From the NCBI GenBank assembly GCA_046483985.1, contig JAWOCD010000021.1, forward strand, positions 1 through 64,000: DNA of 64,000 nucleotides, given 5' to 3'. The stretch is from Promethearchaeia archaeon (GTDB taxonomy: Archaea; Asgardarchaeota; Lokiarchaeia; Sigyniarchaeales; SOKP01). Each line of letters opens with the position of its first letter. Positions within the stretch are counted from its first letter, which is position 1. The notes under the pieces were generated by a model. It searched no databases and had not been told where the DNA came from. It saw only the letters and a list, made by a program, of their open reading frames with translations. This document shows positions 1 to 30,507 of the stretch, piece by piece. The position numbers were made by a program, and so were the translations under genes.

Positions 1-447
1 CAGGACTATAAAATCATGTTAGAAGATGGGAAATATGTGAGAGTTGCGTTGGTCCTAGATCAAAGGCCTTCTGATACACTTAAAGAGGGTGTATCTAACT
101 TTATCACGCGATTTGAATCGAAATACGAAAAACACTTAAAGGATTTTGACGGCGTTACGAAGTATTACCGGGATTTTATGAAATTGTCATCAGAGAAATT
201 TCGGCTTACCTTATACACGCCCCATGTCATCAATCCGAAACTCGTCAAAGCCAAATTAGAAGATTTTGAGAAAACCGTTTTAGAGATAACTCAAACCTTT
301 GAATTAATGTCCGAAAAACATTTAAACATCGCGGAACTCCGCAATTATCTCATCAGCGTGTTGCCGAATGAACCCAAGGAACGAATTACTGCGACTCTTT
401 TAGAGCTCATTGACAAAAAGTACTTGGTCCCCTTGTTTGAAGAATGA
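1..447 (+). CDS. 3' part of a protein with a longin/roadblock-like segment and a C-terminal winged-helix-like region (truncated by window start)
   Basis: The frame is open from base 1 (CAG GAC TAT AAA ATC ATG). The KIMLEDGKYVRVALVL...FITRFESKY strand-strand-helix pattern resembles Asgard longin-like domains. Confidence 0.45.
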   Translation, partial: QDYKIMLEDGKYVRVALVLDQRPSDTLKEGVSNFITRFESKYEKHLKDFDGVTKYYRDFMKLSSEKFRLTLYTPHVINPKLVKAKLEDFEKTVLEITQTFELMSEKHLNIAELRNYLISVLPNEPKERITATLLELIDKKYLVPLFEE

Positions 448-10748: not shown

Positions 10749-12878
10749 ATGAAGAAAATAACTAACGCTAAATCAGCGGAAATTTCCTCACAGGCAAAAG
10801 GTGAGTTATCTCAAAACTATGCAAATTTGGATAGATTAAATGATCTTATTTTTGTTTTAGATAAGGATTTAAATATCCGATATATAAATACCAATGATCC
10901 CCTTGAAAAACTCAATTATGACCCTCAAGAATTAGTAGGAAAGCCAATTTCAGCGATAATTTCCCGAAATTACAAAGGAACTTTTGAACAAGCACGGACG
11001 AAGCATACTCCGATTGAATTACAGTTCAAAAAAAAGGGAGGAGGCAAGTTATGGTATGAAATTCTCTTTGGAGAACCTAACCACCAGGATGATACTTCGG
11101 AATATATCTTAAGTTGCCGGGATATTACACAACGAAAAAAAAATCAAGAAGCGATAAACTATGAAATTCAATTACAAAGTATTTTATCAGATATATCAAC
11201 TCAATTTACCGACCTTAAAAATATTGAAAAGAAAATAGGAAATACTCTTGAAAGACTTGGAACCCTAAGCGATTCAAGTAGAGTTTATATTTTCTTATAT
11301 GACTTAGAAAATGAAGTAATGAGTAATGAATTTGAATGGTGTGCTAAGGGAATCAATTCGCAAATCGACGAACTTCAAGAATTAGCTTTATCTAATTTCC
11401 CATGGTGGATCAATAAGCTGGAAAAAGATGGAATTATTAGAATTAGTAGTCTATCGGACTTACCAAATGAGGCAAAATCTACAAAGCAAACTTTAAAAGC
11501 TCAAGATATTAAATCTCTTTTAGTACTTCCCCTTCATATCAGGGGGAAAGTCTCTGGATTTATAGGGTTTGATGACGTATATGAAACTTCAAAATGGACT
11601 AATAAGGATCATATGCTATTAAAAATCTCATCCGAGATTATTAGTAATGCGATTGAAAGGAACCAAGTTCAAAAAAGAATAAGATCTTCTGAAAAAAAAT
11701 ATCGGGAAATCTTAGAAAATATAAAAGAGATCTATTTTGAGGTCGATTTAAAAGGGAACCTTAAATTTTTTAATAATGCTTTGCCCCAAATAACCGGATA
11801 TTCTAAGGATACTCTCTTAACTATGAATTTTCGAGACCTTATTGTAGATGAACATCAAGACTATGTATTTAAAAAATTTAATCAAATGTTTAGGGGAAAA
11901 AAGGGGACTTCCTCCATAGAATTTAATTTAATCGTAAACGACGGAGATGTTCTCACTTTTGAAAGCTCTACATATTTAAAGCATGATTCTCAAGGAAAAA
12001 TTATTGGTTTCTATGGATTTGGAAGAGACATTACAGAGAAAAAGAAATATTTAGAAATGCAACAAGAGTTCAACAGAAAATTAGAAAAAGAAGTAGAAAA
12101 ACGGACGGAAGAACTAAATGAAGCACTCGAACAACAGAAACTTTATATGGATGAAATTCTCAAATCTTCAAAATTTAAGTCAGAATTTTTAGCAACAATG
12201 TCTCATGAATTGCGAACACCCTTAAATGCGATCATCGGATTCACAGATCTATTATTGCAAGGAGTCTATGGAGCACTTAATGAAGAGCAAGAAGAATTTG
12301 TGGAAGATATCAAATCTTCGGCCGAACATCAATTTGATATGATAAAACAAATTCTAAATATTTCTAAAATCGAATCGGGACAATTAACGCTAAATTTAAA
12401 GAAATTTTCTCTCACTTCTGTGGTCAATCAACTTAAATCAAGCTTACGCCCCCTCTATAAGAAAAAAGGTCTTTCATTTATCGTAAAAGGACTAGGGGAA
12501 GATAAACAAATTGTGGCAGATCCAATACGTTTCAAGGAGATATTACTAAATTTACTCAGTAATGCAATAAAATTTACTATGGAAGGAAAGATAACCTTAA
12601 TTATTAAAGAAGGATATAATAGTTGGAAATTTAAGGTAAAAGATACTGGTATTGGGATTGCAAAAGAAGATTTTGATAAAATATTTAAAGAATTTGGGAG
12701 GGTTGATTCGGCATATGTTCGTTCCACATCTGGGACTGGATTAGGGTTATCTCTCACAAAACGTTTGGTGCATTTACATGAGGGAGAGATAAGTTTTAAT
12801 AGTTTATTAGGTATGGGATCCGTCTTTAAATTTACAATATCTAAGGAATTGGAACAAGAATTAGAAAATAATAATTAA
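10749..12878 (+). CDS. Soluble histidine kinase PAS-GAF-PAS-HisKA-HATPase
   Basis: H-box SHELRTPLN, N-box NLLSNAIKF, DTGIGI and GTGLGL. GAF segment (EWCA.GI...GFIGFD). PAS/PAC RDIT motifs. No TM segment. Confidence 0.95.
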   Translation: MKKITNAKSAEISSQAKGELSQNYANLDRLNDLIFVLDKDLNIRYINTNDPLEKLNYDPQELVGKPISAIISRNYKGTFEQARTKHTPIELQFKKKGGGKLWYEILFGEPNHQDDTSEYILSCRDITQRKKNQEAINYEIQLQSILSDISTQFTDLKNIEKKIGNTLERLGTLSDSSRVYIFLYDLENEVMSNEFEWCAKGINSQIDELQELALSNFPWWINKLEKDGIIRISSLSDLPNEAKSTKQTLKAQDIKSLLVLPLHIRGKVSGFIGFDDVYETSKWTNKDHMLLKISSEIISNAIERNQVQKRIRSSEKKYREILENIKEIYFEVDLKGNLKFFNNALPQITGYSKDTLLTMNFRDLIVDEHQDYVFKKFNQMFRGKKGTSSIEFNLIVNDGDVLTFESSTYLKHDSQGKIIGFYGFGRDITEKKKYLEMQQEFNRKLEKEVEKRTEELNEALEQQKLYMDEILKSSKFKSEFLATMSHELRTPLNAIIGFTDLLLQGVYGALNEEQEEFVEDIKSSAEHQFDMIKQILNISKIESGQLTLNLKKFSLTSVVNQLKSSLRPLYKKKGLSFIVKGLGEDKQIVADPIRFKEILLNLLSNAIKFTMEGKITLIIKEGYNSWKFKVKDTGIGIAKEDFDKIFKEFGRVDSAYVRSTSGTGLGLSLTKRLVHLHEGEISFNSLLGMGSVFKFTISKELEQELENNN

Positions 12879-12899: not shown

Positions 12900-13538
12900 A
12901 TGGAAGTATATGAAATCATTAAAAGTGAAATAGAAAAATACCCCTTTATTACGATAATAGGAAAATATGACCAAGTATTAGGTCCGAGAGCATTATACTC
13001 TTCGGTAGAATTCGAAGATAAGCAATTTGTTCGAAATCTTTTGCGGGATGCATTGAATACGAAAAACGAATATGTAATTTTGGACTTTGAGAAATTCTAT
13101 TCCCAAATCAGTAAAATTGAGGTCAAGGATCCAAATGCTCGTGGAGGAAAACAGCTTTATGCAATAATTCTTTTAAGACATGGAAATATGCCTCTTCTTC
13201 CAATTTTGCATTTCAAAAGAATTGAAATGATGTTTCATAAAATTGGGGAGGATAAGATTCTTGCAGATAATGCGGAGGCATTTAAGAAATTTGTTCAAGA
13301 GGTAAATGAAATTTATTTAAATAAAAACGAAATTTTACCTCTTGAATCATTAAATCTCCAAATTCGTAGTGGAGTAAATACAATTCAAGGATTTTGCCAA
13401 TTAATATTGCAAGAGAAGAAAAAGAAAGGAGAAATTTCGGAAGAAAATGTCCTGAAGTATGTAAAAATGATGTTAGATTCCTGTGATGAGATAATCAATG
13501 GATTAAAAAACCACTTGAACGGATCTCCAAATAAATAA
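12900..13538 (+). CDS. uDENN/longin-like domain fused to a His-less HisKA(DHp)-like helical hairpin
   Basis: N-terminal IIGKYDQVLGPRALYS and ARGGKQLYAIILL resemble Asgard uDENN/longin. C-terminal NLQIRSGVNTIQGFCQLIL aligns with SHELRTPLNAIIGFTDLLL of the upstream kinase. Confidence 0.6.
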   Translation: MEVYEIIKSEIEKYPFITIIGKYDQVLGPRALYSSVEFEDKQFVRNLLRDALNTKNEYVILDFEKFYSQISKIEVKDPNARGGKQLYAIILLRHGNMPLLPILHFKRIEMMFHKIGEDKILADNAEAFKKFVQEVNEIYLNKNEILPLESLNLQIRSGVNTIQGFCQLILQEKKKKGEISEENVLKYVKMMLDSCDEIINGLKNHLNGSPNK

Positions 13539-16256: not shown

Positions 16257-17747
16257 ATGTCAGAATCTGCAGAAAAAATCATTAAATTCTTTTGTGAAAG
16301 ATTTTTAGATATTGATTATTATCCCAGTAAAATTAAGAAAGTTCGAAATCTCTCTATTGAGAAGCTTAAAGGACTTAATAAAAAAGACATTAAAAGATTA
16401 GAAGAGATAGGAATTAAAAAAATAAATGACTTTCGTAATATTCAAAGATCCGACTTTGAAGATATTACATCGAAAACTAAAATTAAAAAATCGGTATTAC
16501 AGAATGGACTAATTGCTGCGACGTTGATCGCAAACGCGTGGCAAAAAAGAAAACTTTATACAAAAAAGATGAAGAAAAAGATCACAGTTGCGGGCTTGGA
16601 TTATGCAGGAAAGACTTCAATCATAAATCGATTATTTAAAAATCAGCAATTTGAAGATGTTATAGATACGGAACCGACCAGGGGCGCGAAAATCGAAGAA
16701 TATGAATCAAACCGTCTAAATTTGGTTATATGGGATCTTGGAGGGCAAAAAAACCATATTGATGAGTATCTTTCAGAACCAGAAAAGTTTTTTCTTCAAA
16801 TAAATGTACTTATATATGTTGTAGATGTCCAAGATGACACCAGGTATGATGAATCTGTGCAATATTTAAGAGATATCATAGATATCATTGATTTCTTAAA
16901 TGAATATCCTTATGTTATTGTATTGCTGCATAAGGCGGATACTGACGTAATGAATGACCCAGATTATCAGATAAGAATCGAATATTTAACTGAAAAGATT
17001 TCGGAAGTTTTTGAAGTCAGAAAGAATCCATTACAGTATGAAATGATCCCCACAAGTATATATAATATGTATGCAAACGAGCCAGAAATAGCCAGAGACA
17101 TTAAATTTATATTTTCAAATAAGAATAAACAAGCAGAAATAGAAAAACCGAAAATCAGCGAAGAAATTAAAGAAGAGATCAAAAAGATCCCGAATATCGA
17201 AAAAAAGCTTCAGAGTATTCCAGTTATGGAAAAGAAGATTCAAAAGATTCTGGAAATCAACTTACAATCCATGAATAAAGTAAAATCTGAATTAAATGAA
17301 ATTAAACGAATAATGGGACAATTGGTCCCCTCTTCTGTGTCTCAGTCTCTATTTTCGATACCTTTTAAAAAAGTATCTTCCAGATTTTTAGCAGAACAAC
17401 AAAAAGAAGAGGAAGAGAAGAGAGAGAAAGAATTAAAAAAGAAAAGAAAAAAAGGAGAGGGCCCCCCGCAGAGATTGGATTCTCATCCAAAGGTTAAGAA
17501 AAAGCGAAAGGATGAAGAGCCAAAAGAATCAGAACAAGAAGAATTAGGGCAAGATGAAACTGGATCATTAATCCCTCCATCAACATCTGATTTAGAGCAT
17601 TTGAAACCTCCACCTAATCCTCCTAAATCAAAATCTCCGTCGACGCAAATGAAAAATCCCGCAGCAGTTAGAGGGGATATTTTATCAGAACTAAAAGAGA
17701 TGTTCGTAAAGAAAGGATTAGCCAAACGTAAAAAACGTAAAAATTAA
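16257..17747 (+). CDS. HhH-like - Arf-like GTPase - coiled coil - Pro-rich tail protein
   Basis: HhH-like IEKLKGLNKKDIKRLEEIGI. G1 GLDYAGKT, G2 PTRG, G3 WDLGGQ, YVVD, G4 HKAD, G5 TSI. PPPNPP tail. Confidence 0.85.
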   Translation: MSESAEKIIKFFCERFLDIDYYPSKIKKVRNLSIEKLKGLNKKDIKRLEEIGIKKINDFRNIQRSDFEDITSKTKIKKSVLQNGLIAATLIANAWQKRKLYTKKMKKKITVAGLDYAGKTSIINRLFKNQQFEDVIDTEPTRGAKIEEYESNRLNLVIWDLGGQKNHIDEYLSEPEKFFLQINVLIYVVDVQDDTRYDESVQYLRDIIDIIDFLNEYPYVIVLLHKADTDVMNDPDYQIRIEYLTEKISEVFEVRKNPLQYEMIPTSIYNMYANEPEIARDIKFIFSNKNKQAEIEKPKISEEIKEEIKKIPNIEKKLQSIPVMEKKIQKILEINLQSMNKVKSELNEIKRIMGQLVPSSVSQSLFSIPFKKVSSRFLAEQQKEEEEKREKELKKKRKKGEGPPQRLDSHPKVKKKRKDEEPKESEQEELGQDETGSLIPPSTSDLEHLKPPPNPPKSKSPSTQMKNPAAVRGDILSELKEMFVKKGLAKRKKRKN

Positions 17748-17780: not shown

Positions 17781-19316
17781 TTATAAAACTATACGATTTC
17801 GCATCTCTTGTGCCTTGTCCATAATTTTGGAAATTTCATTCAAGTCGCTTTCCAAAATCGCTTTCATCAGATTTATTTTCAATTGCTTTACTTTTTTCAA
17901 TTCTACTTGTAATTTCTGGTTAATTTCTTCATAGAGTTGATCTATGCTATTATACAATTCTTTTGAATAATCTTCATCGTAGATTTTAAGATCAATCATA
18001 CTATCATTGTAACTTTTATTTAATTCCCTTAACCATTTGTTCCCCGGTTCTTTTAAATTAACCATACCATCTAAGGACCCTTGAATTGCAATTTTTCTGA
18101 ATTCTTTTGAATATTTTTCAAATAATTCGTTAAAATAGTCGATGATTCGATACTTAAAGTATGAGAAGTTTGTTTTGGGATTCATAAAGATACAGATCAA
18201 AAATTTACCATGATTGAATACATTCATTTTTAAATTTGACCCCTTGAGATCCAAAGATGTTAAATCTTGGATATTCACTTCTCTTGCAAATTTTTGGATG
18301 GCAGAAATAAACATAGGAATTAACGAAATATCAAACTTAACCTCTTGGTTAACTTCTCCTTTACGAGGAATTTGAGAGATATATTTTGCTAGTGCTCCCT
18401 CTTCTATCTCTAATTTTAGACATATACGACCGTTATCGTCAGATACAATGCAGCCAATAAAGGGAGGGATATTTTTCACATCTTTCTTCTTTAAACGAGT
18501 GCTACTTGAATACCCTATAAAATCTTCAATCGAGAAACCTTCCATTATTTGATTATAATTGTCTTTTCCTTTATCTGTGAGACTATAGACTTTTCCCTTA
18601 TTTACCTCCATAATTTTTACTTGATCTCTCTTAAGAAGCATTTGTATGATTTTTTCTATGAGATCCTCGGGTCTATTTAATTGGAGTATTAATTCTTTTT
18701 TAGAAAGCACCAAGTTCTTGCTTAGCAGATTTAATACTTTAAAAGTTTCTTGGAGCAAATTGATGTTTAATCTCTCGTAAGGGATTGAATCAAATTGGCA
18801 AATCTTTAGTATTTCTAAAAAGAAAGACAAAGTATCTTGAAAATATTCTTGTTTAATACTTGTAAATACTACCCTTATTCCGTATTTATTTTCCAATTTC
18901 GGAGTGAATTGTTCTTTTAAGTCCATGATTCTCTGACGATCTACCAGATCGATTTTATGGAGAAGAAGATAAACCATTGCACTTGGCGATAGCTCATTTC
19001 GAAGTTGGATAATCTGTTCTAAAAAATTCTTAATAGTCTTCTTCTCAGTTGTTACCTCAATAACAATTAAAATTAATTTAGCATCGTAAAAGATCTTTTT
19101 ATCTTCAGTTTCAAACCACCGTTGGTTTTCTTGACCTGATAAGTCAAACACACCGATTGAGTCTTGCATTTCCAGTATTATTGATTCTATCCCATAAGTA
19201 GGTTCTAATCCATATTCTAAGAGACTCCTGGGATTCTCTCCTTCAAAAAAGACTTTTCGCAGAGTAGATTTTCCAGCTTTTGGGGGCCCTACAAAAATAA
19301 TTTTTTTTGAACTCAT
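17781..19316 (-). CDS. Rag-like GTPase - winged helix - longin/roadblock-like fusion
   Basis: GPPKAGKS, PTYG, DLSGQ, HKID, TSI. Wing motif YSLTDKGK. GCIVSDDNGR...LIPMFISAIQKF is longin-like. Confidence 0.85.
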   Translation of the reverse strand: MSSKKIIFVGPPKAGKSTLRKVFFEGENPRSLLEYGLEPTYGIESIILEMQDSIGVFDLSGQENQRWFETEDKKIFYDAKLILIVIEVTTEKKTIKNFLEQIIQLRNELSPSAMVYLLLHKIDLVDRQRIMDLKEQFTPKLENKYGIRVVFTSIKQEYFQDTLSFFLEILKICQFDSIPYERLNINLLQETFKVLNLLSKNLVLSKKELILQLNRPEDLIEKIIQMLLKRDQVKIMEVNKGKVYSLTDKGKDNYNQIMEGFSIEDFIGYSSSTRLKKKDVKNIPPFIGCIVSDDNGRICLKLEIEEGALAKYISQIPRKGEVNQEVKFDISLIPMFISAIQKFAREVNIQDLTSLDLKGSNLKMNVFNHGKFLICIFMNPKTNFSYFKYRIIDYFNELFEKYSKEFRKIAIQGSLDGMVNLKEPGNKWLRELNKSYNDSMIDLKIYDEDYSKELYNSIDQLYEEINQKLQVELKKVKQLKINLMKAILESDLNEISKIMDKAQEMRNRIVL

Positions 19317-19339
19317 TTCCTTGTAATTCTGTATTTTTC

Positions 19340-20872
19340 TTATTTTTCTTTAATTAATTCTTTAGTTTTTAATTTTTGAATATGATTATTAATTCTTTTT
19401 AGATCTTTTATATTTTCTTCCACTGCTGCTTTCAGTAAGTGTTTCTTTAACTTCCTAATCTTTTTATACTTTTTGTTTTTTCTTTCAGAAATCTGATTGA
19501 TTGTTTGATAAAGGGAATTAATGAGATCGAAATCAAAGTATTCCATATTTTCTTTGGTTTCTTTATATTTTTGGTTAAGATTTTTAATCCATATTCTCTC
19601 TTGATTCCGAAAATCCTCTACAAATTCTTTTTTACCTACAAGAACTTTTTTCAATTCCTCTCCGTATTTTTGGAATAATTTTTTAAAATGTTTTCTAATC
19701 TTCCCAGCTATTTTTTCAATCTTAATATTTGAATTAAAAAAGCATGTAACAGTAAATTCTCCGTAACTGAAGACTTGCATACGTAACCGATTTCCCATTA
19801 AATTCAAACCCGTTAAATCTTTGACATTGATTTCTTTAGAAAACTTTTCTAAAGCGCTTACAAACATGGGTATTAATTCGATATCGAACTTTTCAGCTTC
19901 TTTACTCTTAATCTGTTTTAAGGTATTTTCAAGCAAATTATCCTCAGATTCCAAAATACATATAGTTTTTCCATCTTTATCAGCTATTAATCCACCAGCA
20001 AAAGGAGGTATCTTCTTGTCTTGAGGTAGTATTGAAGAAAGTGTATTGGAATCTATCGTTTTGAAATCTTTTAGTGAAACTTTTTCGAGGATTTCCTGAA
20101 AATGCTTTTCTCCTTTTTCTGTAAGGCTATATTTTTTTTTATTCGCAATTTTTTTACATTTAAGATGCCTTTTCCGTAAGAGCAATTCCGAAATTTCACT
20201 AAATTGGTTTGGCGAAAGATTTTTCATTGTTTCCATCAATTCTTCTTCTGTTGGTTCTTCTTTCAAGGAAACCGAGTCAACGAAAGTCAAGGTATTTTTT
20301 AGAAATGAAAGATCAATTTGTTCTGTTTCTAAATTTTTTCTTTTCAATATGTTTTTTAAGATCTTAATAAAAATTTCGAAAGTGGAAAGAAAGTAATCTT
20401 TCTTAATACTGGTGAAATAAATCTCTAATTTCTCGGCACCCTTCAGCCCTTCTTGTATATACTCCTTTATTTCATGCAATTCATTTGAATTAATCAAATC
20501 GATTTTGTGAATCAATAAATTTATCTTTGCAGAGGGAACAATTTCATCCCTAAGATCTAATATCTTGTGGGCAAAGCTTAATATCTCTTCTTTAGGGGTA
20601 GTGACATCAATTACATTTATTATTTCAGAGGTATTATAGAAAATAGAACGATCTTCGGACTCAAACCAACGTTTATTTTCTTGTCCCGATAAATCAAAAA
20701 TACCTATTTTCTTTTGCAAATTTAATACTTGAGTATCATATCCATGGGTAGGACTAGGGGGAAAATAATTCAATAACTTTTTTGAGCTTTCTCCATTAAA
20801 AAATACTTCTATCAATGTCGTTTTACCGGCGTTTGGTTTTCCAGTAAATAGAATTTTCTCGGATTTTTTCAT
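19340..20872 (-). CDS. Rag-like GTPase - winged helix - longin/roadblock-like fusion (paralog)
   Basis: GKPNAGKT, PTHG, DLSGQ, HKID, TSI. Wing motif YSLTEKGE. GLIADKDGK...LIPMFVSALEKF. Confidence 0.85.
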   Translation of the reverse strand: MKKSEKILFTGKPNAGKTTLIEVFFNGESSKKLLNYFPPSPTHGYDTQVLNLQKKIGIFDLSGQENKRWFESEDRSIFYNTSEIINVIDVTTPKEEILSFAHKILDLRDEIVPSAKINLLIHKIDLINSNELHEIKEYIQEGLKGAEKLEIYFTSIKKDYFLSTFEIFIKILKNILKRKNLETEQIDLSFLKNTLTFVDSVSLKEEPTEEELMETMKNLSPNQFSEISELLLRKRHLKCKKIANKKKYSLTEKGEKHFQEILEKVSLKDFKTIDSNTLSSILPQDKKIPPFAGGLIADKDGKTICILESEDNLLENTLKQIKSKEAEKFDIELIPMFVSALEKFSKEINVKDLTGLNLMGNRLRMQVFSYGEFTVTCFFNSNIKIEKIAGKIRKHFKKLFQKYGEELKKVLVGKKEFVEDFRNQERIWIKNLNQKYKETKENMEYFDFDLINSLYQTINQISERKNKKYKKIRKLKKHLLKAAVEENIKDLKRINNHIQKLKTKELIKEK

Positions 20873-20997: not shown

Positions 20998-21372
20998 ATG
21001 AAGCAAGTATTCGTGGTAGAAGATAATAAAAAGAATATGAAATTGTTCAAGGCTATATTAAACCTTATCGATAATATTGAAGTTCATGAAGCAACTAGAG
21101 GGGATGAAGGCCTTGAGGCGATTGAAAGTACCGAAACTGTGCCCGACTTAATTATTTTAGATATTCAATTGCCTGAAATTAGTGGAATCGAAATCTGTAA
21201 GAAACTTCGTGAACAAGAGGAGTATGAAGATGTTATAATGATTGCTGTAACTTCGTTTGCGATGAAGGGAGATAAGGAGCGGATCATGTCAGCGGGATTC
21301 GATGAATATATTTCAAAACCGATAAAAGTTGCAGATTTTCGTGCCCTTATTGAGTCTTATCTCTCTGACTGA
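20998..21372 (+). CDS. Single-domain response regulator, DivK-like
   Basis: VEDN..NMKLF, DIQLP.ISG and AVTSFAMKGD.ERI..AGFDEYISKP. Confidence 0.92.
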   Translation: MKQVFVVEDNKKNMKLFKAILNLIDNIEVHEATRGDEGLEAIESTETVPDLIILDIQLPEISGIEICKKLREQEEYEDVIMIAVTSFAMKGDKERIMSAGFDEYISKPIKVADFRALIESYLSD

Positions 21373-21509: not shown

Positions 21510-23360
21510 ATGCAAGAAGACTCAAAGATTTCAGACTGGAGGTTTAACTGTCTGCTTGACGTTTCAAGGATTATCGAAAAAAATATTCCATTAAATGGGA
21601 CTTTACAAAAAATAGTGGATCGGATACCTCTCTCGTTTCCTTATCCTGAAAATACTGCTTGTAAACTTATTTATAAACATAAGGATTTTAAATCTAAAAA
21701 TTACAGTAAAACCAATAGAAAGGTTGTTTCTAAGATAAGGGTAGAAAATGAAATTCACGGAAATCTTCAAATTAATCGATTGAATCAAAAATCGCCTTAT
21801 GAACATAATAAAATCCACAAAGAAGAGAAGGATTTAATTGACGCACTTGCTGAGATGATAGGGAGATATTTGGCATATTATTTGGCAAAAGAGAGGTTAA
21901 GCGAATCAGAAAAAAAATTTAGAGTTATTTTCCAAAATGCTGCAATCGGTATTGCCCAACTCTCTATTGAAGGGAAATTTATTAAAGTAAATAAGAGATT
22001 CTGTGATATTTTTGGATATAATAAAGAAGAGCTATTTGAATTAAATTTTCAAGATCTTGCGGATTCCGGCGATCTCGATAAGGGTTCCGATGATGTACAT
22101 GAGTTGCTTAAAGAAAAAGTAGAAAGATTTATTAGGGAAAAGCAATATTCTAATAAGACGGGGAAGACAATATGGATTTCTTTAACGTTTTCACTAATAA
22201 AGGATGAAGATGATCGTCCAAAATATTTTATTTTACTCGTAAAAGATATTACAGAAAGAAAGCATGCCAGAAAAGAATTGAAAAAAAAAGAGAAATTATA
22301 TAGATCGATTGCTGAAAACTTACCCAACGGTGTTGTCCATATTTTGGATGAGAGTTTAAATTATATCCATAACATGGGAGAGGAATTAAATAGATTAGGG
22401 ATTGACAATGAGAAATTAGTGGGGAAGAATATTTATGAAGTTTTAGATGAAGAAACGGCAAAATATGTTGCTTCTAAATATGAAACATGTCTAAATGAAG
22501 ATAAAGTGGTTACTTTTGAACGAAAATTAAAAGATTTGACATTTTTAATCAATGCAATTCCCGTAAAATTGGACCCAAGCAAACCATCTCGAATCCTAGC
22601 TTTATCTGTGAATATTACTGATCGTAAAAGAATGGAAAGCAAACTGAGACTGTTGAATAAGGAATTAAGAAGGTCAAATGAGGATTTAGAACAATTTGCC
22701 TATGTCGCCTCCCACGATCTTCAAGAGCCTTTAAGGATGGTCTCAAGTTTTACTCAATTGCTCAAAAAACGATATCAAGATAAATTAGATGAAGATGCAA
22801 ATGATTTTATAAACTATGCGGTTGATGGGGCAAAACGCATGAAAAAATTGATTAACGACCTATTAATCTTCTCGAGAGTGGGTACACGAGGAAAACCATT
22901 TAAATTAACTGATATGAATAAAGTTATAGAAGATATAAAACTAGATTTAAGACAATTAATAGAAGAAACTAATGCAAATATCTTAAGCAAACGATTGCCT
23001 ACAATAAAAGCAGATAAGGGACAAATGAGGCAAGTATTCCAGAACCTTATTTCAAATGCAATTAAATTTCGTAAAGAAAAAGAGGATCCCGTAATAAGGA
23101 TATCTTCTAAAGAAACAGAAAGCCATTGGATATTCTCTGTTGAAGATAACGGAATTGGAATAGACGAAAAGTTTTTCGATAAGATTTTTATAATTTTCCA
23201 AAGATTACAAAAGAAGTCTGATTATGGAGGCACAGGGATTGGATTAGCTGTATGCAAAAAAATTGTAAGAAGACATGGCGGGAAAATCTGGGTGGAGTCA
23301 GAAAAAGGAGAAGGATCAACATTCTCTTTTACAGTTAGTAAAAATATTAAACAAAAATAA
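21510..23360 (+). CDS. Soluble PAS histidine kinase, Cph1/phytochrome-type transmitter
   Basis: RSNEDLEQFAYVASHDLQEPLRMV, NLISNAIKF, DNGIGI, IFQRL and GTGIGL. Two PAS domains and no chromophore-binding module. Confidence 0.95.
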   Translation: MQEDSKISDWRFNCLLDVSRIIEKNIPLNGTLQKIVDRIPLSFPYPENTACKLIYKHKDFKSKNYSKTNRKVVSKIRVENEIHGNLQINRLNQKSPYEHNKIHKEEKDLIDALAEMIGRYLAYYLAKERLSESEKKFRVIFQNAAIGIAQLSIEGKFIKVNKRFCDIFGYNKEELFELNFQDLADSGDLDKGSDDVHELLKEKVERFIREKQYSNKTGKTIWISLTFSLIKDEDDRPKYFILLVKDITERKHARKELKKKEKLYRSIAENLPNGVVHILDESLNYIHNMGEELNRLGIDNEKLVGKNIYEVLDEETAKYVASKYETCLNEDKVVTFERKLKDLTFLINAIPVKLDPSKPSRILALSVNITDRKRMESKLRLLNKELRRSNEDLEQFAYVASHDLQEPLRMVSSFTQLLKKRYQDKLDEDANDFINYAVDGAKRMKKLINDLLIFSRVGTRGKPFKLTDMNKVIEDIKLDLRQLIEETNANILSKRLPTIKADKGQMRQVFQNLISNAIKFRKEKEDPVIRISSKETESHWIFSVEDNGIGIDEKFFDKIFIIFQRLQKKSDYGGTGIGLAVCKKIVRRHGGKIWVESEKGEGSTFSFTVSKNIKQK

Positions 23361-23907: not shown

Positions 23908-26502
23908 TTGAATAAGAAGGTAGCAGATTCAGAAATAGACATAATTTTAGTCGAAGACAATCCCGGAGATATCCGATTAGTTGAAGAGTTATTGAAACAA
24001 GCAAGAGATTTTAAATTTAGTTTTAGTTCTATTCAAACACTCGACAAGGGGCTTCAAAAAATTAAGAACTTTAATTTTGATATTATCCTTTTGGACTTAA
24101 GTTTGCCTGATAGCCGAGGTGTGACGACAATAAGAAAAACCCAAGAACACGCAAATAACACCCCGATTATTGTTTTAACTGGTTTAGCAGATGAGGAACT
24201 CGCGCGGCAAGCTATTCAATTTGGAGCTCAAGACTATTTGGTAAAAGGACAAATTAGGAGTAATCGACTTGTAAGGTCGATTTATCATGCTATTGATCGG
24301 AAAAGGATGCTGAAAAAGATCCACGATCTTGCAAGTTTTCCTTCCGACAATCCTTCTCCGGTTTTACGGGTCAATAAACATAAAATTTTATATGCTAATC
24401 CAGCTGCAAAATCACTCTTTGATATCAAAGATATCAAAAAAGGGGATAATATTCCAAATGTATTAAAAGGGTATATTAAAGAGGCATTCAATAATAACGA
24501 TATTGTCAATTGTGAAATCGAGAGAAAACAAAAAGATTTTTCTTTTATCCTTAAACCCATCAAGGAACTTGATTATATTAATATTTATGGAATGGAGATA
24601 ACGGAATTAAAAAAAGCAGAAAAAGCAAGAAGAGAAACACAAAAGCAATATAGTGAATTGTTCAATCATATAAATGATGCAGTATTTATCCATGATTTGG
24701 AGGGAAATATACTCGACTTCAATAAAAAGGCTATGGATACCCTTGGATATTCCCGAAAAGAACTAATACAATTAACTGTTATGGATTTTGATGCTCCCGA
24801 ATTTGCCAAAAATGTTCCAAGAAAAATCCAGGAAATAAAACACAAGGGCCAATCAATAGTTGAGACAGCTCATCAAACTAAAGAAGGAAAGATTATCCCA
24901 ATAGAATTGAACTCGAAGATTATTAATTATGAAGGAAAAGACGCAATCCTCAGTGTAGCCAGGGATATAACTGAAAGAAAAGATTATGAAAAAAAGATAG
25001 AGAAATCAGAAAAACGCTATAGGGATCTGTTCGATAATTCTCCCTACCCTATTATTATCGCTGATTTAGAGGGAAAAATTCTCAACTTTAGCGTCCCCCT
25101 CCTAAGAAAAAGCGGATACACGAGAAAAGATATGATTAATAAATCATTTAATGAAATAGAATTTATTCCTAAGGAATATTCAAAATATTTTAACAGAATT
25201 TTTCAAAAACTTCAAGAAGAATCAAAAGTTAAACCCTTAGAAGTGAAATGTCTCCCAAAGAAAAAAGATTCGTTGTGGCTGAGACTCAATTTCTCGTTAA
25301 TTGATATAGAAAACGAGAAAATGGTCTACATATTAGGGCAGGATATTACTGAACTAAAGAGATCCAAACGAAAATTGTATAAAACGGAGAGATCGCTGCA
25401 AGAATTAAATACATTAATAGAAGATGCCCCATTAGCAATAGTTCTATTGACTCCAGAAGGAAAAATTCTAAGAATGAATAGAGAAGCAATCGATTTATTC
25501 GAGTGTTCCCATAAAAGGGAATATGAACACAATATATTTCATTTTTTCCCGGAAAGTGAATTAGATAAAATAATTTCACATTATAAAGAAAATATATATC
25601 ATCCAAATAGAAATAAGAAATTCGAAACATATATAAAAACCCTTAAAGGCAAAAAAACAGAAGTGGAAATAACATCCACAATTTTTAAAATTTCAGATCG
25701 TATTGTTATCCAATCATTTATATCAGATATAAGCGAAAGGAAAGAACATGAAAAAAACAGGCAAAAATTATTGGACCAATTATTAACTTCACTAGAAGTT
25801 AAATCAAGATTTTTTGCAACAATATCCCATGAATTGAGAACTCCATTAAATGCAATCATTGGTTTTTCCGACATCTTATTAGAAGAATCTTATGGAGAAT
25901 TAAATGAGGATCAGAAGGAGTTTTTAGAAGATGTGTTTTCAGCTTCCAATCACTTGGAAGAATTGATAGGATCGGTCTTGGATTTTTCAAAAAGTGAAGC
26001 AGGAAAATTGAAATTAAATAATAAAAAATTCAATATTTGGGAAACAATAAAGGAAGTAAAAACCCTAGTAAAGCCAGCCTACGAAAAAAAGGGACTTGAA
26101 TTCATAGTGCAAGGTATGAAAAAAGAAGATACTATTGTTGCAGATCCACTCAGATTCAAGCAAATCCTTGATAATTTGTTAACTAATGCGATAAAATTTA
26201 CAGAGCAAGGATATGTCAAAATTAAAGCAATACAACATTCAGATCATTGGGAGTTTCGGATAAAGGATACGGGAGTAGGGATTAAAAAAGAAAACTATGA
26301 TGTGGTTTTTCGGGAATTTGGAAGGGTCGAAGATGAGATTATTAAAGAGATTTCGGGGTCTGGGATAGGTTTAGCTCTCACAAAGCGATTGGTTCAATTA
26401 CATGGAGGAGAAATTTGGTTTGAAAGTGAATATGGAAAAGGGACTACATTTATCTTTACAATCCCAAAAAGAGAGGGAAAATTTCCGAAACAAAAGAATT
26501 AA
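23908..26502 (+). CDS. Hybrid kinase REC-(PAS)x4-HisKA-HATPase
   Basis: N-terminal receiver (VEDNPGD, DLSLPDS, GAQDYLVK), PAS repeats, SHELRTPLN, NLLTNAIKF, DTGVG and GSGIGL. Confidence 0.95.
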   Translation: MNKKVADSEIDIILVEDNPGDIRLVEELLKQARDFKFSFSSIQTLDKGLQKIKNFNFDIILLDLSLPDSRGVTTIRKTQEHANNTPIIVLTGLADEELARQAIQFGAQDYLVKGQIRSNRLVRSIYHAIDRKRMLKKIHDLASFPSDNPSPVLRVNKHKILYANPAAKSLFDIKDIKKGDNIPNVLKGYIKEAFNNNDIVNCEIERKQKDFSFILKPIKELDYINIYGMEITELKKAEKARRETQKQYSELFNHINDAVFIHDLEGNILDFNKKAMDTLGYSRKELIQLTVMDFDAPEFAKNVPRKIQEIKHKGQSIVETAHQTKEGKIIPIELNSKIINYEGKDAILSVARDITERKDYEKKIEKSEKRYRDLFDNSPYPIIIADLEGKILNFSVPLLRKSGYTRKDMINKSFNEIEFIPKEYSKYFNRIFQKLQEESKVKPLEVKCLPKKKDSLWLRLNFSLIDIENEKMVYILGQDITELKRSKRKLYKTERSLQELNTLIEDAPLAIVLLTPEGKILRMNREAIDLFECSHKREYEHNIFHFFPESELDKIISHYKENIYHPNRNKKFETYIKTLKGKKTEVEITSTIFKISDRIVIQSFISDISERKEHEKNRQKLLDQLLTSLEVKSRFFATISHELRTPLNAIIGFSDILLEESYGELNEDQKEFLEDVFSASNHLEELIGSVLDFSKSEAGKLKLNNKKFNIWETIKEVKTLVKPAYEKKGLEFIVQGMKKEDTIVADPLRFKQILDNLLTNAIKFTEQGYVKIKAIQHSDHWEFRIKDTGVGIKKENYDVVFREFGRVEDEIIKEISGSGIGLALTKRLVQLHGGEIWFESEYGKGTTFIFTIPKREGKFPKQKN

Positions 26503-26555
26503 ATTGAAGATAATCTTTATAAGATAGTGCATTTAAAGGAATCCTGCTTATTTAA

Positions 26556-28982
26556 TTGAATAAAACTAAGAGAATGGCATATAATAACTTACTAAAATAT
26601 TCATCGGATATTGTATTTATCTTTGACTTACAAGGGAATTTTATTTCAGTAAATAATAATTTTCTTAAAAAGCTAAAGTACAGAAATAAAAAAAAAATTT
26701 CTGAGCTTAAAATATCCGATATCATTCATTTCTCAGAAAAAGAGTATAATGCCCCAGAATTAGTTGAAATCTTCAAGAAATCATACAAAAATAAAACCTC
26801 AGAGGATTTTCAATTAATTGGGAGAAAAAATGAGGAAATACCAGTGCGGGGGGATTCAATACCCTTTAAAAAAGAAGGAAAGGTTATTGGGATTTTAATT
26901 AGTGCTCGACATACTGCACAGAAAAAGAAACTTGAACATGAATTAAAGTTGAAAGAAACAGAAATCAAACAAATTTATCAAAAGAATCCAGAGATTAGAT
27001 TCTGGGATTTATTTCAGACAAAAGATAGTCAAGAATTATTTAGACAAAGCGAAAGACTGTATAAGAATTTATTTGACAACGCTCCGATTGGAATTTGCAC
27101 CATTGATAAAGAAGGCAAGATTTTACAAATTAACAAACGGGCGATGGAAGTCTTTCGTTCCGACGATTTTAGAATATTAACTAAGGATCTTAGTATTTTT
27201 AATTCTGATTTCTTTAATAACTCTGATTTTACTAAAACTTTAAAAAATGCTATAAAGACTGAAGAGACTACAAGTAAGACCATTAAGTTCTCACCAGATA
27301 AAGAATTCGAAAAATATCTTCATATTCGTATTGTTCCTCAATTTGACCAAAATAAGAATTTTATAAATCTTTTATGCATTATAGAGGATAGAACGAAATT
27401 AATTGAAGCTCAGCAGAGGTTAAAAGAATCTAAAGAGAGATATGAAGATATCTTTGATCAAATGGAACATATCATATATATTTCAGATCCCTCTACCTAT
27501 GAACTGTTATATGTTAATGACATAACTAAGCAAGCCTTCCCGGGGAAGATTATTGGAAGAAAATGTTACAAGGTATTTCAAGACCGGGACGAACCATGTC
27601 CCTTCTGTACAAATGATAAATTATTTGGAAAAAATCCAGAATCCCCCCATATTTGGGATTTTTATAATGAAAAGCTCGGAAAATGGTTTCATATAATCGA
27701 TCAATCAATTGATTGGGGAGGGAAAAAAGTTCGGCTAGAATTTGCAGAAGATATTACAAAAAAAAAAGAAACGGAGCAACAACTTAGAGGAGCAGAAAAA
27801 AAATATCAGGGAATTTTAGAAAATATTAAAGAAGGTTATTTTGAAGTAAATCTAAAAGGAGAATTTACACTCTGCAATAAGGCCTTTTGTAATATTCTAA
27901 AGGACTCAGCTGAAAGTATTTTGGAGAAATCCTACAAATCATTTATCGCTGAAGACTATAAGAAATATGTTTATGAAACGTTCTACGACGTTTATCAAAC
28001 GGGAATAATCAAACGGGCTTTTCAATTTCGAATAGTAAGAGGGGACGGACAGAAAAGATATGTTGAATCATCTATATATCTACGTCGTGGGAGGGATCAA
28101 AAAATAAAGGGATTTTCTGGGTTACTAAAAGATATAACTAAGAGGAAAGAGGGAGAAGCTCTGAGAAAAGAATTTAGGCAAGAGTTGGAAGAAGAAGTTA
28201 AAATACGGACTAACCAATTAAATGAGGCCTTAAAAAAACAACAGGCATATCTTGAAGAAATCTTAAAAGCGTCCGAATTTAAATCAAAATTTTTAGCAAC
28301 AATCTCCCATGAACTCCGAACTCCCTTAAACGCTATTATCGGCTTTGCAGACCTATTATTGGAAGGGTCATATGGAGGAAACCTCTCAGAAACCCAAGAG
28401 GGATTTATAGATGATATTAAATATTCCGGTAATCAGTTATTGAACTTGATTAATCAAATTCTAGAAATCTCCAAAATTGAAGAAGGTGGGATTAAATTAA
28501 ATAAAAAGGAGTTTTCTTTAAATAAAATTGTTACTCAGGTGGTTTCTTCATTTCGAAGTCTGATGGATAAAAAAGAATTAAAGATAGAAATAGAGAATTT
28601 ACAAGACAATATGAAAATAATTGCAGATCCTCTCCGAATAAAAGAAATCTTGAATAACCTCATCTCTAATGCCATCAAATTTACTGAAGAGGGGGTTATC
28701 ACTTTAAAACTCGTTGAGAGAAAAACGGAGTGGGAATTTCAGATTTCCGATACAGGAATTGGTATCGCCCAAGAAGACCATGAAATGGTTTTTAGTGAAT
28801 TTAATCAAGCAGGAGATCCAGATATATCCCCTAAAAAAGGGACGGGATTAGGATTATCAATTACAAAACGTTTGGTTGAACTACATCAGGGAAATATATG
28901 GGTTGAAAGTAAGCTTGGAGAGGGGACAACTATTTATTTTACAATTCCAAAAAGTAGTGCCTCAAGGAAACCTAGATCTTAA
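26556..28982 (+). CDS. Soluble (PAS)x4 histidine kinase
   Basis: SHELRTPLN, NLISNAIKF, DTGIG and GTGLGL. One PAS carries KCY...PCPFC. Confidence 0.95.
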   Translation: MNKTKRMAYNNLLKYSSDIVFIFDLQGNFISVNNNFLKKLKYRNKKKISELKISDIIHFSEKEYNAPELVEIFKKSYKNKTSEDFQLIGRKNEEIPVRGDSIPFKKEGKVIGILISARHTAQKKKLEHELKLKETEIKQIYQKNPEIRFWDLFQTKDSQELFRQSERLYKNLFDNAPIGICTIDKEGKILQINKRAMEVFRSDDFRILTKDLSIFNSDFFNNSDFTKTLKNAIKTEETTSKTIKFSPDKEFEKYLHIRIVPQFDQNKNFINLLCIIEDRTKLIEAQQRLKESKERYEDIFDQMEHIIYISDPSTYELLYVNDITKQAFPGKIIGRKCYKVFQDRDEPCPFCTNDKLFGKNPESPHIWDFYNEKLGKWFHIIDQSIDWGGKKVRLEFAEDITKKKETEQQLRGAEKKYQGILENIKEGYFEVNLKGEFTLCNKAFCNILKDSAESILEKSYKSFIAEDYKKYVYETFYDVYQTGIIKRAFQFRIVRGDGQKRYVESSIYLRRGRDQKIKGFSGLLKDITKRKEGEALRKEFRQELEEEVKIRTNQLNEALKKQQAYLEEILKASEFKSKFLATISHELRTPLNAIIGFADLLLEGSYGGNLSETQEGFIDDIKYSGNQLLNLINQILEISKIEEGGIKLNKKEFSLNKIVTQVVSSFRSLMDKKELKIEIENLQDNMKIIADPLRIKEILNNLISNAIKFTEEGVITLKLVERKTEWEFQISDTGIGIAQEDHEMVFSEFNQAGDPDISPKKGTGLGLSITKRLVELHQGNIWVESKLGEGTTIYFTIPKSSASRKPRS

Positions 28983-29353
28983 CAAACTAAACCCTTATCA
29001 GTTAATTTATCTATTAGGCCTTCATTATCCTCTGAAAAGCGTGAAGAAGACTCTTTCTCCCGGATTTCATAATAAATAGAAAAATTTTCCTCTGCCCTGA
29101 AAAAATCAATGGTCCAAATTAGCGTTTGAAATTTTTTAGAGGTAATAATTGAGGGTTTATGGGAAAAATTTTCTAAACACATAAAATTGGGGACTTGATC
29201 AAAAATATTAATATCAAAAAGGGAAGAGTCCGAGATATTTATAATTCTCAACTTGATAATTAATGTTTGAGCATTAGATACCTCAACTATTGTCTTTTTC
29301 CCCTTAATTTTTTTCCTAGATTGTATTCCAATCTTTAGATGAGATGTTTTCAT
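28979..29353 (-). CDS. Small DUF11/Ig-like beta-sandwich protein (start revised to 29353)
   Basis: IKLRIIN....L.DINIFDQVP..LIWTI.......I.YEI pattern. A strong SD (AAGGAGGTT) lies just upstream of the ATG at 29353. Confidence 0.55.
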   Translation of the reverse strand: MKTSHLKIGIQSRKKIKGKKTIVEVSNAQTLIIKLRIINISDSSLFDINIFDQVPNFMCLENFSHKPSIITSKKFQTLIWTIDFFRAEENFSIYYEIREKESSSRFSEDNEGLIDKLTDKGLVC

Positions 29354-29377
29354 TTTATTAAACCTCCTTTTTTTATA

Positions 29378-29399
29378 CATATCGTTATATGCCGATATG
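29378..29399. promoter_or_regulatory. Candidate ArsR operator CATATCG-N8-CGATATG
   Basis: Perfect 7-bp inverted repeat beside an AT-rich TATA-like tract, in the divergent region upstream of the ArsR gene. Confidence 0.45.
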
Positions 29400-29506
29400 C
29401 CTATATAATATTATAGTTGTAAAAGTATTTAAATCTATTCATTTTATCATAATTAGGGATCATGGGAAATAAACAATTTTTTCATAAAAGAAAAATAAAA
29501 AAATAA

Positions 29507-29890
29507 GTGATTTCTTACGTGCAAAATTTGAAATCAGATATGATTAATATCTTCAAAATGCTGGCAGATTCTACAAGACTCGACATCATCTATTTAGTGA
29601 AAAATAATAAGGAGTTATCTTCAGGAGAAATTGAAGATTCTTTAGATAAGAGTCAATCTACAATTTCCCAACATTTGAATAAACTTTGTAACGAGGGTTT
29701 GCTTGAATTCCGTATGGGAAAACGAAAGGATATTGACTCACGGCCAGTCAAGTTATATTCAATAAATGATAAGGAACTATTTACAATTCTTTCAAATTTT
29801 AAAAATCTCATTACCAAAATAAAAACAAATCGAGTAGAAGAAAATTTAGAAGTATTGACCGATTCAGATATATCAGATATTTTAGAATAA
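29507..29890 (+). CDS. ArsR/SmtB family transcriptional regulator
   Basis: FKMLADSTRLDII and SQSTISQHLNKL..EGLL. Confidence 0.9.
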   Translation: MISYVQNLKSDMINIFKMLADSTRLDIIYLVKNNKELSSGEIEDSLDKSQSTISQHLNKLCNEGLLEFRMGKRKDIDSRPVKLYSINDKELFTILSNFKNLITKIKTNRVEENLEVLTDSDISDILE

Positions 29891-29918
29891 GCATCGGATC
29901 AAAGCCGGAGCTGATAAT

Positions 29919-30458
29919 GTGACTAAAAAAGGAAATTCCAACGATATAAAAGAGAGAGCAAAAATAATCCTTCTGGGATTAGATAACAGTGGGAAAACCT
30001 CTATAGTATATTCCTTGCAGAAGAGGAAAGGTCTGCATAATTATTCAAATATTAGCCCTACCAAGAACCATAATATAGAGGAAATAAATACGAACGAAAA
30101 GGAATATATTATCTGGGATATTGGGGGTCAAACAAGGAACAGAGAGGACTTCCTTTCAGAATTTGAAATAAAAGTCGAAGGAACAAACAAAATAATTTAT
30201 GTTATTGATGTGCAAGATATCGAACGTTATGACAAAGCACTTCAATATTTATCAGAGGTTATAGAAAATCTTAAAAAATGTTCCTTGAATGTAAAGATAT
30301 CTGTATTTTTGCATAAGTTTGATCCTCATTTAACTATAAACCGACAAAAGCTTCAAGAACTTATAAGAGAAATAGAAGATCTCATTCCCAATCAGTTTGA
30401 ATATAGTATTTCAAAAACTAGTATTTTTACGGTTTTCCGGAAAAAAGATCTATTATAA
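29919..30458 (+). CDS. Stand-alone Arf-like small GTPase
   Basis: GLDNSGKT, PT, WDIGGQ, IIYVID, HKFD and KTSI. Confidence 0.9.
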   Translation: MTKKGNSNDIKERAKIILLGLDNSGKTSIVYSLQKRKGLHNYSNISPTKNHNIEEINTNEKEYIIWDIGGQTRNREDFLSEFEIKVEGTNKIIYVIDVQDIERYDKALQYLSEVIENLKKCSLNVKISVFLHKFDPHLTINRQKLQELIREIEDLIPNQFEYSISKTSIFTVFRKKDLL

Positions 30459-30507
30459 TATTATAGACATCCTCTAATATACTGGTCAAGACTCCATTTT
30501 TAGGTTT

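Follow-up and report, generated by a model that had tools for sequence, protein, structure and literature searches.

A longin domain fused to a histidine-less HisKA hairpin: a candidate regulator of Rag-like GTPases in an Asgard signaling island

The DNA analyzed here (the window) comprises 64,000 nucleotides of contig JAWOCD010000021.1 from a Promethearchaeia archaeon (assembly GCA_046483985.1), with a base composition of ~31% G+C. One of its genes encodes a protein of 212 amino acids in which an N-terminal longin domain is followed by a C-terminal helical hairpin, referred to here as the longin-hairpin protein. The analysis established its two folds, its motifs, the descent of the hairpin from HisKA, the conserved gene island in which the gene lies, and the joint presence and absence of the gene and neighboring GTPases. 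From sequence and structural models, we favor with moderate confidence that the protein regulates the Rag-like GTPases encoded around it, probably as a GTPase-activating protein (GAP). That it links Rag-like GTPases to two-component signaling is plausible.

An earlier note on this DNA, made from the sequence alone, had described the product as a uDENN/longin-like domain followed by a HisKA mimic, and the translation of the gene is exactly the residues it quoted. The reading of both halves held up, as detailed below, and its functional inference, in which the protein would bind a kinase or a phosphorylated receiver and would regulate a GTPase, is plausible.

Longin fold and GAP-type motifs of the N-terminal domain

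The AlphaFold2 (AF2) model of the whole protein (pLDDT 84) showed, by DSSP, a helix at residues 2-11, strands at 17-24 and 28-34, a helix at 41-52, strands at 58-63, 66-76, and 84-94, and then helices at 102-114, 117-121, and 125-140. The element order strand-strand-helix-strand-strand-strand-helix-helix is that of longins. The top Foldseek matches in the PDB were GATOR1 (NPRL2/NPRL3), FLCN-FNIP2, the yeast SEA complex, the Lokiarchaeal longin 8yqg, and DENND10 (probability 1.00). Similar results were obtained with VIA, an independent all-against-all method, where the Z scores were 12.7 for NPRL2 (8fw5_B), 12.6 for the Lokiarchaeal longin (8yqg_B), 11.8 for Npr2/3, and 11.7 for FLCN (6nzd_H), these four and Lst4 together spanning Z 9.6-12.7. 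Other longins (VAMP7, Lst4, adaptin sigma/mu, Mon1-Ccz1, and TRAPP) matched at about Z 8.4-10.7. The nearest clusters of predicted structures were Asgard longins, a Heimdall cluster with Pfam Folliculin, Loki longin-GTPase fusions, eukaryotic NPR2, and SMCR8. The non-longin entries among the 50 structural matches listed cover the C-terminal hairpin alone.

A PAS or GAF identity of the N-terminal domain was ruled out, no PAS/GAF chain being present among the 50 best structural matches listed.

At the sequence level, Pfam Folliculin (PF11704) matched weakly in 27/27 aligned members of the family (residues ~73-115, best E 7.2e-5), and Pfam NPR2 (PF06218) matched neither the longin-hairpin protein nor any of the 27 members. 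A sequence search of solved structures (family profile, longin part alone) returned only chance matches to CheY and IleRS (E 0.08-0.9). This search gave no FLCN/NPRL2 alignment in which the arginine discussed next (Arg81) could be placed residue by residue.

Strand 2 opens with a Gly28-Pro29 (GP) motif in which G is conserved in 128/128 and P in 127/128 family members, and a second near-invariant residue, Arg81, falls within the region matched by Pfam Folliculin and is a candidate arginine finger. A 2025 survey puts the GP motif at the beginning of strand 2 or immediately ahead of it, close in space to the arginine finger, lists it in FLCN, NPRL2, SMCR8, and C9orf72 and as missing from FNIP2, NPRL3, and non-GAP longins, and describes the recurrence of GP motif and Arg in a class of Asgard longins (PMC12290439, Traffic 2025). 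In the FLCN-RagC structure, the catalytic contacts are formed by a loop of residues 10-16 and Arg164 (PMC9473554). In the longin sheet, with its strand order 2-1-5-4-3, the strand 4-5 turn that carries Arg81 would lie beside the strand 1-2 turn. The range of the structural alignment with NPRL2 (model 14..153 on chain 6..163) is compatible with NPRL2 Arg78. As a lead only, the FLCN and NPRL2 strings HGPRTLF and SLARGFQRWYSII, and TLGPKITY and YSRNALLF, closely resemble LGPRALY and NARGGKQLYAIIL of the longin-hairpin protein.

The nearest Loki paralogues, which are free-standing longins of ~165 residues and proteins of 345 residues in which a longin is fused to an Arf-like GTPase, share both GP and D..ARGG, and the D..ARGG loop is found in all Loki GP-longin paralogues, longin-GTPase fusions included. 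These fusions argue that this type of longin acts directly on small GTPases. The earlier note had left open whether the protein would be a guanine nucleotide exchange factor (GEF) or a GAP; the GP motif together with invariant Arg81 points to the GAP class of FLCN, NPRL2, and SMCR8.

Three of the fusions were located on other loci (L021:1485-2522 (+), L022:1461-2501 (+), and L023:956-2044 (-); 345-362 residues), each with a GP/ARGG longin and an Arf-like GTPase in one chain, so that the candidate arginine finger and a possible substrate are joined in cis.

HisKA descent of the C-terminal hairpin

The remainder of the protein is modeled as a hairpin of 67 residues with two helices (residues 142-176 and 181-208). 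As the earlier note had claimed, it aligns with the DHp domain of the kinase encoded immediately upstream: in a BLASTP comparison of residues 140-212 with that kinase, LESLNLQIRSGVNTIQGFCQLILQ pairs with LATMSHELRTPLNAIIGFTDLLLQ (9/24 identical, E 0.001 for a single comparison). In this H-box pairing R156, N160, and G164-F165 are kept and Leu153 stands at the position of the phospho-accepting histidine. In a profile-profile comparison by hhalign, the hairpin, represented by 27 sequences, scored 28.3 (P 3.9e-5) against 13 DHp domains encoded in the same genome; the controls scored 13.8 (reversed query), 14.1 (N-terminal domain), and no more than 14.9 (30 column shuffles). Pfam HisKA (PF00512) matched weakly in 7/27 members (best E 0.031). 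A hidden Markov model of the hairpin found nothing significant among all open reading frames (ORFs) of its own genome, several of its top sub-threshold hits being kinases at an H-box-like position, and the HisKA signal thus required the profile-profile comparison. A broader family profile matched the DHp region of neighboring kinases of 971-976 residues in two other genomes (1e-8 and 3e-7).

When 1.84 billion representative sequences were searched with phmmer, the hairpin matched a protein of 556 residues with six HisKA repeats (E 5.5e-8). This protein (P0141), encoded outside the window, has a hydrophobic N-terminus followed by the six tandem repeats (Pfam E 1.6e-37), each of which reads SF[KN][LI]R[TS], with Phe in place of the phospho-histidine.

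The column at the histidine position contains L in 100, M in 20, I in 3, H in 4, and K in 1 of the 128 members. The residue that follows is Gln instead of an acidic residue, and the same 128 sequences show little or no variation at R156 (H+3), S157, N160, T161, G164, and F165. Three distant relatives (P0129, P0130, and P0147; 25-35% identity) still read SH..R or EH..R, indicating that the hairpin is a HisKA domain and that the main family has lost its histidine. By sequence, then, the hairpin descends from HisKA and has lost the phospho-acceptor. The absence of HATPase stated in the earlier note was confirmed: there is no Pfam match to this domain in the protein, which ends at residue 212, and no relative with an ATPase domain was found among 28 phmmer matches in a search that covered proteins of all lengths.

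A conserved island with Rag-like GTPases, kinases, and a receiver

A word-indexed search yielded 290 homologues of 200-260 residues with 55-89% identity, and those with names are all "hypothetical proteins" of Loki type without a Pfam domain. The alignment of 27 sequences contains 45 invariant columns. Its own genome has one copy of the gene. A sample of 301 Asgard genomes contained full-length copies in only two taxonomic families of a single order (26 and 2 genomes, plus one PAS-fused variant); the 226 genomes from the other 28 families yielded none. Presence is patchy even inside genera, and one genome (G210) has a free-standing longin only. The family is thus restricted to one Asgard order, in which it is patchily distributed.

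The only longer forms of the family are those with an added N-terminal PAS domain. These rare variants (P0132 and P0134; 388-391 residues) carry the PAS domain ahead of the longin and a hairpin without the H-box residues. A PAS-longin variant (locus L025/L042, 683-1849 (-)) is divergent from and adjoins a gene for a Rag-like GTPase of 475 residues.

Genetic organization was compared in ~20-kb regions containing the gene from 20 further genomes and in three contigs (one locus, L001, duplicates G207, that is L026), and the ORFs were classified by BLASTP against the proteins of the window. The usual order starts with a divergent gene for a 490-residue GTPase, followed by the longin-hairpin gene, a gene for a 290-residue GTPase, two kinase genes, a pair of genes for 435- and 510-residue GTPases, and then the receiver gene. 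Together with a single-domain receiver and PAS histidine kinases, the island encodes four or five Rag-like GTPases. The 290-residue GTPase gene lies directly 3' on the same strand in 12/23 loci, and in the window as well; the immediate neighbor is a Rag-like GTPase gene in 20/23 genomes, and kinase genes are one or two genes away in nearly all loci. Relatives at 45%, 35%, and 25% identity are likewise found among kinases, receivers, and Gtr1/RagA GTPases. A Rag-like GTPase is the immediate neighbor of the 25% relative, such genes lie 3-7 kb from the 35% relative, and a relative at 33% identity on a contig of 6.4 kb has kinases and receivers only.

Rag-like GTPases of this kind, defined as proteins with E <= 1e-40 to the profile of the 290-residue GTPase, occur in 21/23 genomes with the longin-hairpin gene vs 3/27 genomes without it, all of one taxonomic family and therefore related rather than independent. 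Most of the 27 gene-less genomes had no match to this profile even at 1e-20, and the joint presence and absence holds inside single genera too. That the island is present or missing as a whole, even within genera, suggests that it is an accessory signaling unit which is frequently lost or transferred.

In the window (Table 1), the gene lies between a kinase gene and a GTPase gene and has a receiver gene nearby, as the earlier note had described. The intergenic gaps are 21 and 46 nt, and AGGAG precedes the start codons of the longin-hairpin gene (8-10 nt upstream of its ATG) and of the 289-residue GTPase gene; for these reasons the kinase gene at 10749, the longin-hairpin gene, and the GTPase gene at 13585 probably form one transcript. 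No RNA runs containing the stretch are listed, and one DNA run from freshwater sediment contains a quarter of its words.

Table 1. Coordinates of the longin-hairpin gene, its domains and key residues, and the neighboring genes in the window.
Feature	Position	Strand	Basis
Longin-hairpin gene	12900..13538	+	Open ORF, 212 aa; homologues; AF2 model
Longin domain, FLCN/NPRL2 type, residues ~12-141	12933..13322	+	AF2 topology, VIA, Foldseek
GP motif, Gly28-Pro29, start of strand 2 (residues 28-34)	12981..12986	+	Conservation, model, codons checked
Arg81, candidate arginine finger, strand 4-5 loop (D..ARGG)	13140..13142	+	R in 126/128 members
HisKA-derived helical hairpin (pseudo-DHp), residues 142-208	13323..13523	+	Model, hhalign, phmmer
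Leu153 at phospho-acceptor His position	13356..13358	+	Register from BLASTP, profile alignment
PAS-GAF-PAS-HisKA-HATPase histidine kinase	10749..12878	+	Pfam; ends 21 nt upstream of longin-hairpin gene
Gtr1/RagA-family GTPase, 289 aa	13585..14454	+	Pfam Gtr1_RagA 1.5e-12; starts 46 nt downstream
Longin / Rag-like G domain / roadblock GTPase, 435 aa	14904..16211	+	AF2 model, Foldseek
Rag/Arf-like GTPase, 496 aa, basic tail	16257..17747	+	Pfam
Two tandem Rag-like GTPases, 511 and 510 aa, long C-terminal regions	17781..20872 (17781-19316, 19340-20872)	-	Pfam
Single-domain receiver	20998..21372	+	Pfam Response_reg 6e-25
PAS-HisKA-HATPase histidine kinase	21510..23360	+	Pfam

All five GTPases of the window retain the P-loop (GxxxxGK[ST]), PT.G, DxxGQ, and a Rag-type HKxD. 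The 289-residue GTPase consists of a G domain and a winged-helix-like tail, and its closest solved structure is human RagA. In Foldseek comparisons, the 435-residue GTPase matched RagA, RagC, Gtr1, and Gtr2 at E 2e-14 over ~320 columns. The closest solved relatives of the 496-residue GTPase are the Loki Rag-like GTPases 8yl2 and 8zla, and its orthologue is the steadiest neighbor of the longin-hairpin gene, mostly in divergent orientation. Orthologues of the kinase at 10749 and of the receiver (56-69% identity) are present in the island of most genomes.

In most genomes, the 435- and 510-residue Rag-like GTPases are encoded by adjacent and co-directional genes (orthologous pairs, loci L026-L043), an arrangement that recalls the obligate RagA/RagC pair; two tandem 510-residue paralogues are encoded in the window. 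Three further large histidine kinases (864, 808, and 725 residues) follow the island at 23908-32685, and the signaling cluster extends over at least 10.7-32.7 kb of the window.

Proposed mechanism, alternatives, and known systems

In the mechanism that we favor, Arg81 would serve as an arginine finger: flanked by the GP hairpin, it would enter a Rag-like GTPase's nucleotide pocket, and the faster GTP hydrolysis would switch the GTPase off. The hairpin could no longer be phosphorylated and would most likely pair two copies of the protein into a four-helix bundle. Such a dimer would yield the two-longin platform that is built in eukaryotic longin GAPs by a partner subunit and DENN domains. In the weakest step of the scheme, the H-box surface may dock the receiver or one of the island's kinases, and two-component signals would in this way set the activity or location of the GAP. 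Exposed R156, S157, N160, T161, and G164-F165 are invariant despite the lost histidine, which suggests that the same surface may still dock a receiver or kinase.

Several points weigh against a GAP function or against parts of this scheme. Many longin proteins are GEFs or scaffolds and not GAPs. A DENN domain is lacking, a second longin subunit is not obvious, and the match of the protein to PF11704 (18.8 bits) is under the gathering score of 23.3. The correspondence of Arg81 to FLCN Arg164 and NPRL2 Arg78 is a putative one, drawn from topology, alignment ranges, and this sub-threshold Pfam match, and two distant His-bearing relatives are without the Arg. The hairpin superposes on the DHp of HK853 (5uht) with Z 8.6 and a root-mean-square deviation of 2.1 Å over 68 residues, but helical hairpins are structurally generic and de novo designs equal the HK853 score. 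The immediate GTPase neighbor varies between genomes, and no single target among the five is singled out. Complex prediction with alignments of two copies of the protein and the 289-residue GTPase (score 0.11, mark 0.32) speaks neither for nor against binding.

The main rival explanation, which we regard as possible but on the unlikely side, retains the same GTPase regulator and makes the hairpin merely a dimerization module acquired from a kinase; the island kinases and receiver would then never contact this protein and would influence, for instance, transcription, or reach the GTPases in some other way. The loss of the histidine and of the ATPase domain would be expected, a DHp-type bundle would supply the two-longin platform needed by eukaryotic longin GAPs, and P0132 and P0134 keep the hairpin though their H-box residues are lost. 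A hydrophobic core suffices to dimerize, yet exposed R156, S157, N160, T161, and G164 are invariant over ~120 sequences at 55-89% identity, and kinases and receiver adjoin the gene even in relatives at 25-45% identity. The other two alternatives are lesser ones.

An improbable alternative is that the protein is chiefly a two-component accessory, in which the dead DHp heterodimerizes with a kinase, in the way known from RetS-GacS, or holds or dephosphorylates a receiver, and the longin serves as a protein or ligand input unrelated to GTPase catalysis. Kinase genes indeed flank the gene in nearly all loci, and P0129 and P0130, which have the histidine and are without Arg81, sit among kinases and receivers. 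The phosphatase motif of HisKA has Ser/Thr at H+4, the position that S157 would occupy. Among archaea, sensor-HisKA proteins lacking an ATPase domain have been described, and a phosphatase role has been suggested for them (PMC5847659). However, the GP motif and Arg81 are conserved as strongly as the H-box remnants, paralogues fuse the same type of longin directly to GTPases, and the gene and the Rag-like GTPases are present or missing together. An exchange factor or nucleotide-state scaffold for Rag-like GTPases in the style of Mon1-Ccz1, TRAPP, or DENN longins is very unlikely, for although most longin platforms function as GEFs (PMC10933270) and Mon1-Ccz1, CPLANE, BLOC-3, and TRAPP subunits match at Z 8.4-10.7, the top structural matches are GAP longins, an invariant Arg lies in the loop neighboring the GP motif, and this motif is reported to be missing from non-GAP longins (PMC12290439).

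For the favored GAP, a partner may be encoded in the island itself. The longin of the 435-residue GTPase reads W10-D11...G15, followed by A/S/P/T, in 15 orthologues and has no fixed Arg in its strand 4-5 turn. The spacing equals that of W33-D34...G38-P39 in C9orf72, the non-catalytic partner of SMCR8 (PMC12290439). By analogy, this longin could be the missing non-catalytic partner of the Arg81 protein. A further extension, which we consider doubtful, is a two-component-controlled proto-Rag switch, in which the Arg-finger longin and the WD...G longin would form an asymmetric GAP resembling FLCN-FNIP or SMCR8-C9orf72, and the phosphorylated receiver or a PAS kinase would dock onto the dead DHp. 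If so, an environmental signal would set the nucleotide state of the Rag-like GTPases, and a sensor of prokaryotic style would be wired onto a nutrient switch of eukaryotic style. Such a switch fits the suggestion of Liu et al. that two-component systems with "eukaryotic" regulators control Asgard growth.

Rag GTPases and their longin GAPs, folliculin and GATOR1, form the core of eukaryotic nutrient sensing, and Asgard archaea encode many Rag-like GTPases and longins. In the cultured strain MK-D1, small GTPase genes generally do not share an operon with genes for longins or roadblocks (Tran et al. 2024, PMC10933270), which makes it hard to pair regulators with GTPases among the Asgard proteins. 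The present family offers a concrete conserved pairing, in which one small soluble protein stands beside four or five candidate GTPases, two kinases, and one receiver. Should the dead DHp prove to bind a receiver or kinase, the family would show how prokaryotic phospho-signaling joined a GTPase switch of the eukaryotic type.

Fusion of an NPRL2-like longin to two-component domains in Asgard archaea was described by Liu et al. 2020, who proposed that such systems run growth control (bioRxiv 10.1101/2020.10.19.343400). With its Asgard origin, its GP motif and Arg, and its fusion to a two-component domain, the longin-hairpin protein most likely belongs to this published class of GP-longin/two-component fusions, of which the texts of Liu et al. 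and PMC12290439 give no family-level account. A literature search for Asgard histidine kinases with small GTPases and longins, or for "LokiRag", found nothing. What is new is the identity of the fused domain as a His-less HisKA hairpin without ATPase domain, whose deeper relatives retain the histidine; the controls on the HisKA similarity, the order of the island, and its joint presence and absence; and the D..ARGG loop common to the fused paralogues and the WD...G longin of the 435-residue GTPase. Because fusions of this sort are already known in outline from the literature, the present family adds a well-defined test case and no new principle.

Among known systems, the longin fold is shared with the eukaryotic longin GAPs FLCN (with FNIP2; RagC/D), NPRL2 (with NPRL3 in GATOR1; RagA/B), and SMCR8 (with C9orf72; Arf), as is the GP motif ahead of strand 2; a conserved Arg in the neighboring loop would be a further common feature (PMC12290439, PMC9473554). 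As in the FLCN and NPRL2 systems, the genomic partners are Rag-family GTPases with HKxD, some with a roadblock C-terminal domain. Unlike FLCN, NPRL2, and SMCR8, the protein has only 212 residues, a kinase-derived hairpin replaces the DENN or NPRL2-specific C-terminal domain, no separate partner subunit was found, and Pfam Folliculin is under threshold. When compared with DENN-domain proteins (uDENN-DENN-dDENN), the longin part alone matches DENND10 and the FLCN/FNIP chains, the rest being the hairpin. The longin dimer of Lokiarchaeal Roadblock-Longin (8yqg) comes from the same phylum and has the same fold (Z 12.6 over 128 residues), but identity is 12%, and 8yqg carries a roadblock fusion where the longin-hairpin protein carries the DHp hairpin.

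On the kinase side, HisKA DHp domains such as that of HK853 have a hairpin of the same length with R, S/T, N, and GF in register, whereas the longin-hairpin protein is without the phospho-acceptor His, the following acid, and the ATPase domain. The earlier note had invoked DivL; the analogy is a loose one since DivL has Tyr in place of the His and still carries an ATPase domain. The archaeal "HisKA, no HATPase" sensors (Galperin et al. 2018, PMC5847659) combine PAS/GAF domains with a HisKA whose His is conserved; here, an N-terminal longin takes the place of PAS/GAF and the His is absent.

A kinase, a regulator of the roadblock/longin superfamily, and a Ras-superfamily GTPase are found together, as here, in the Streptomyces conservon (CvnA kinase, CvnB roadblock, CvnC, and CvnD GTPase; PMC4316618), and receiver/kinase signaling is combined with a roadblock regulator and a Ras-superfamily GTPase in Myxococcus Frz, RomR, and MglA/MglB (PMC3441718). 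Kinase-type and roadblock-type domains belong to different proteins in the conservon and Frz/MglA systems, where the GTPases are of MglA type; the longin-hairpin system combines a longin with a kinase remnant in a single chain and has GTPases of Rag type.

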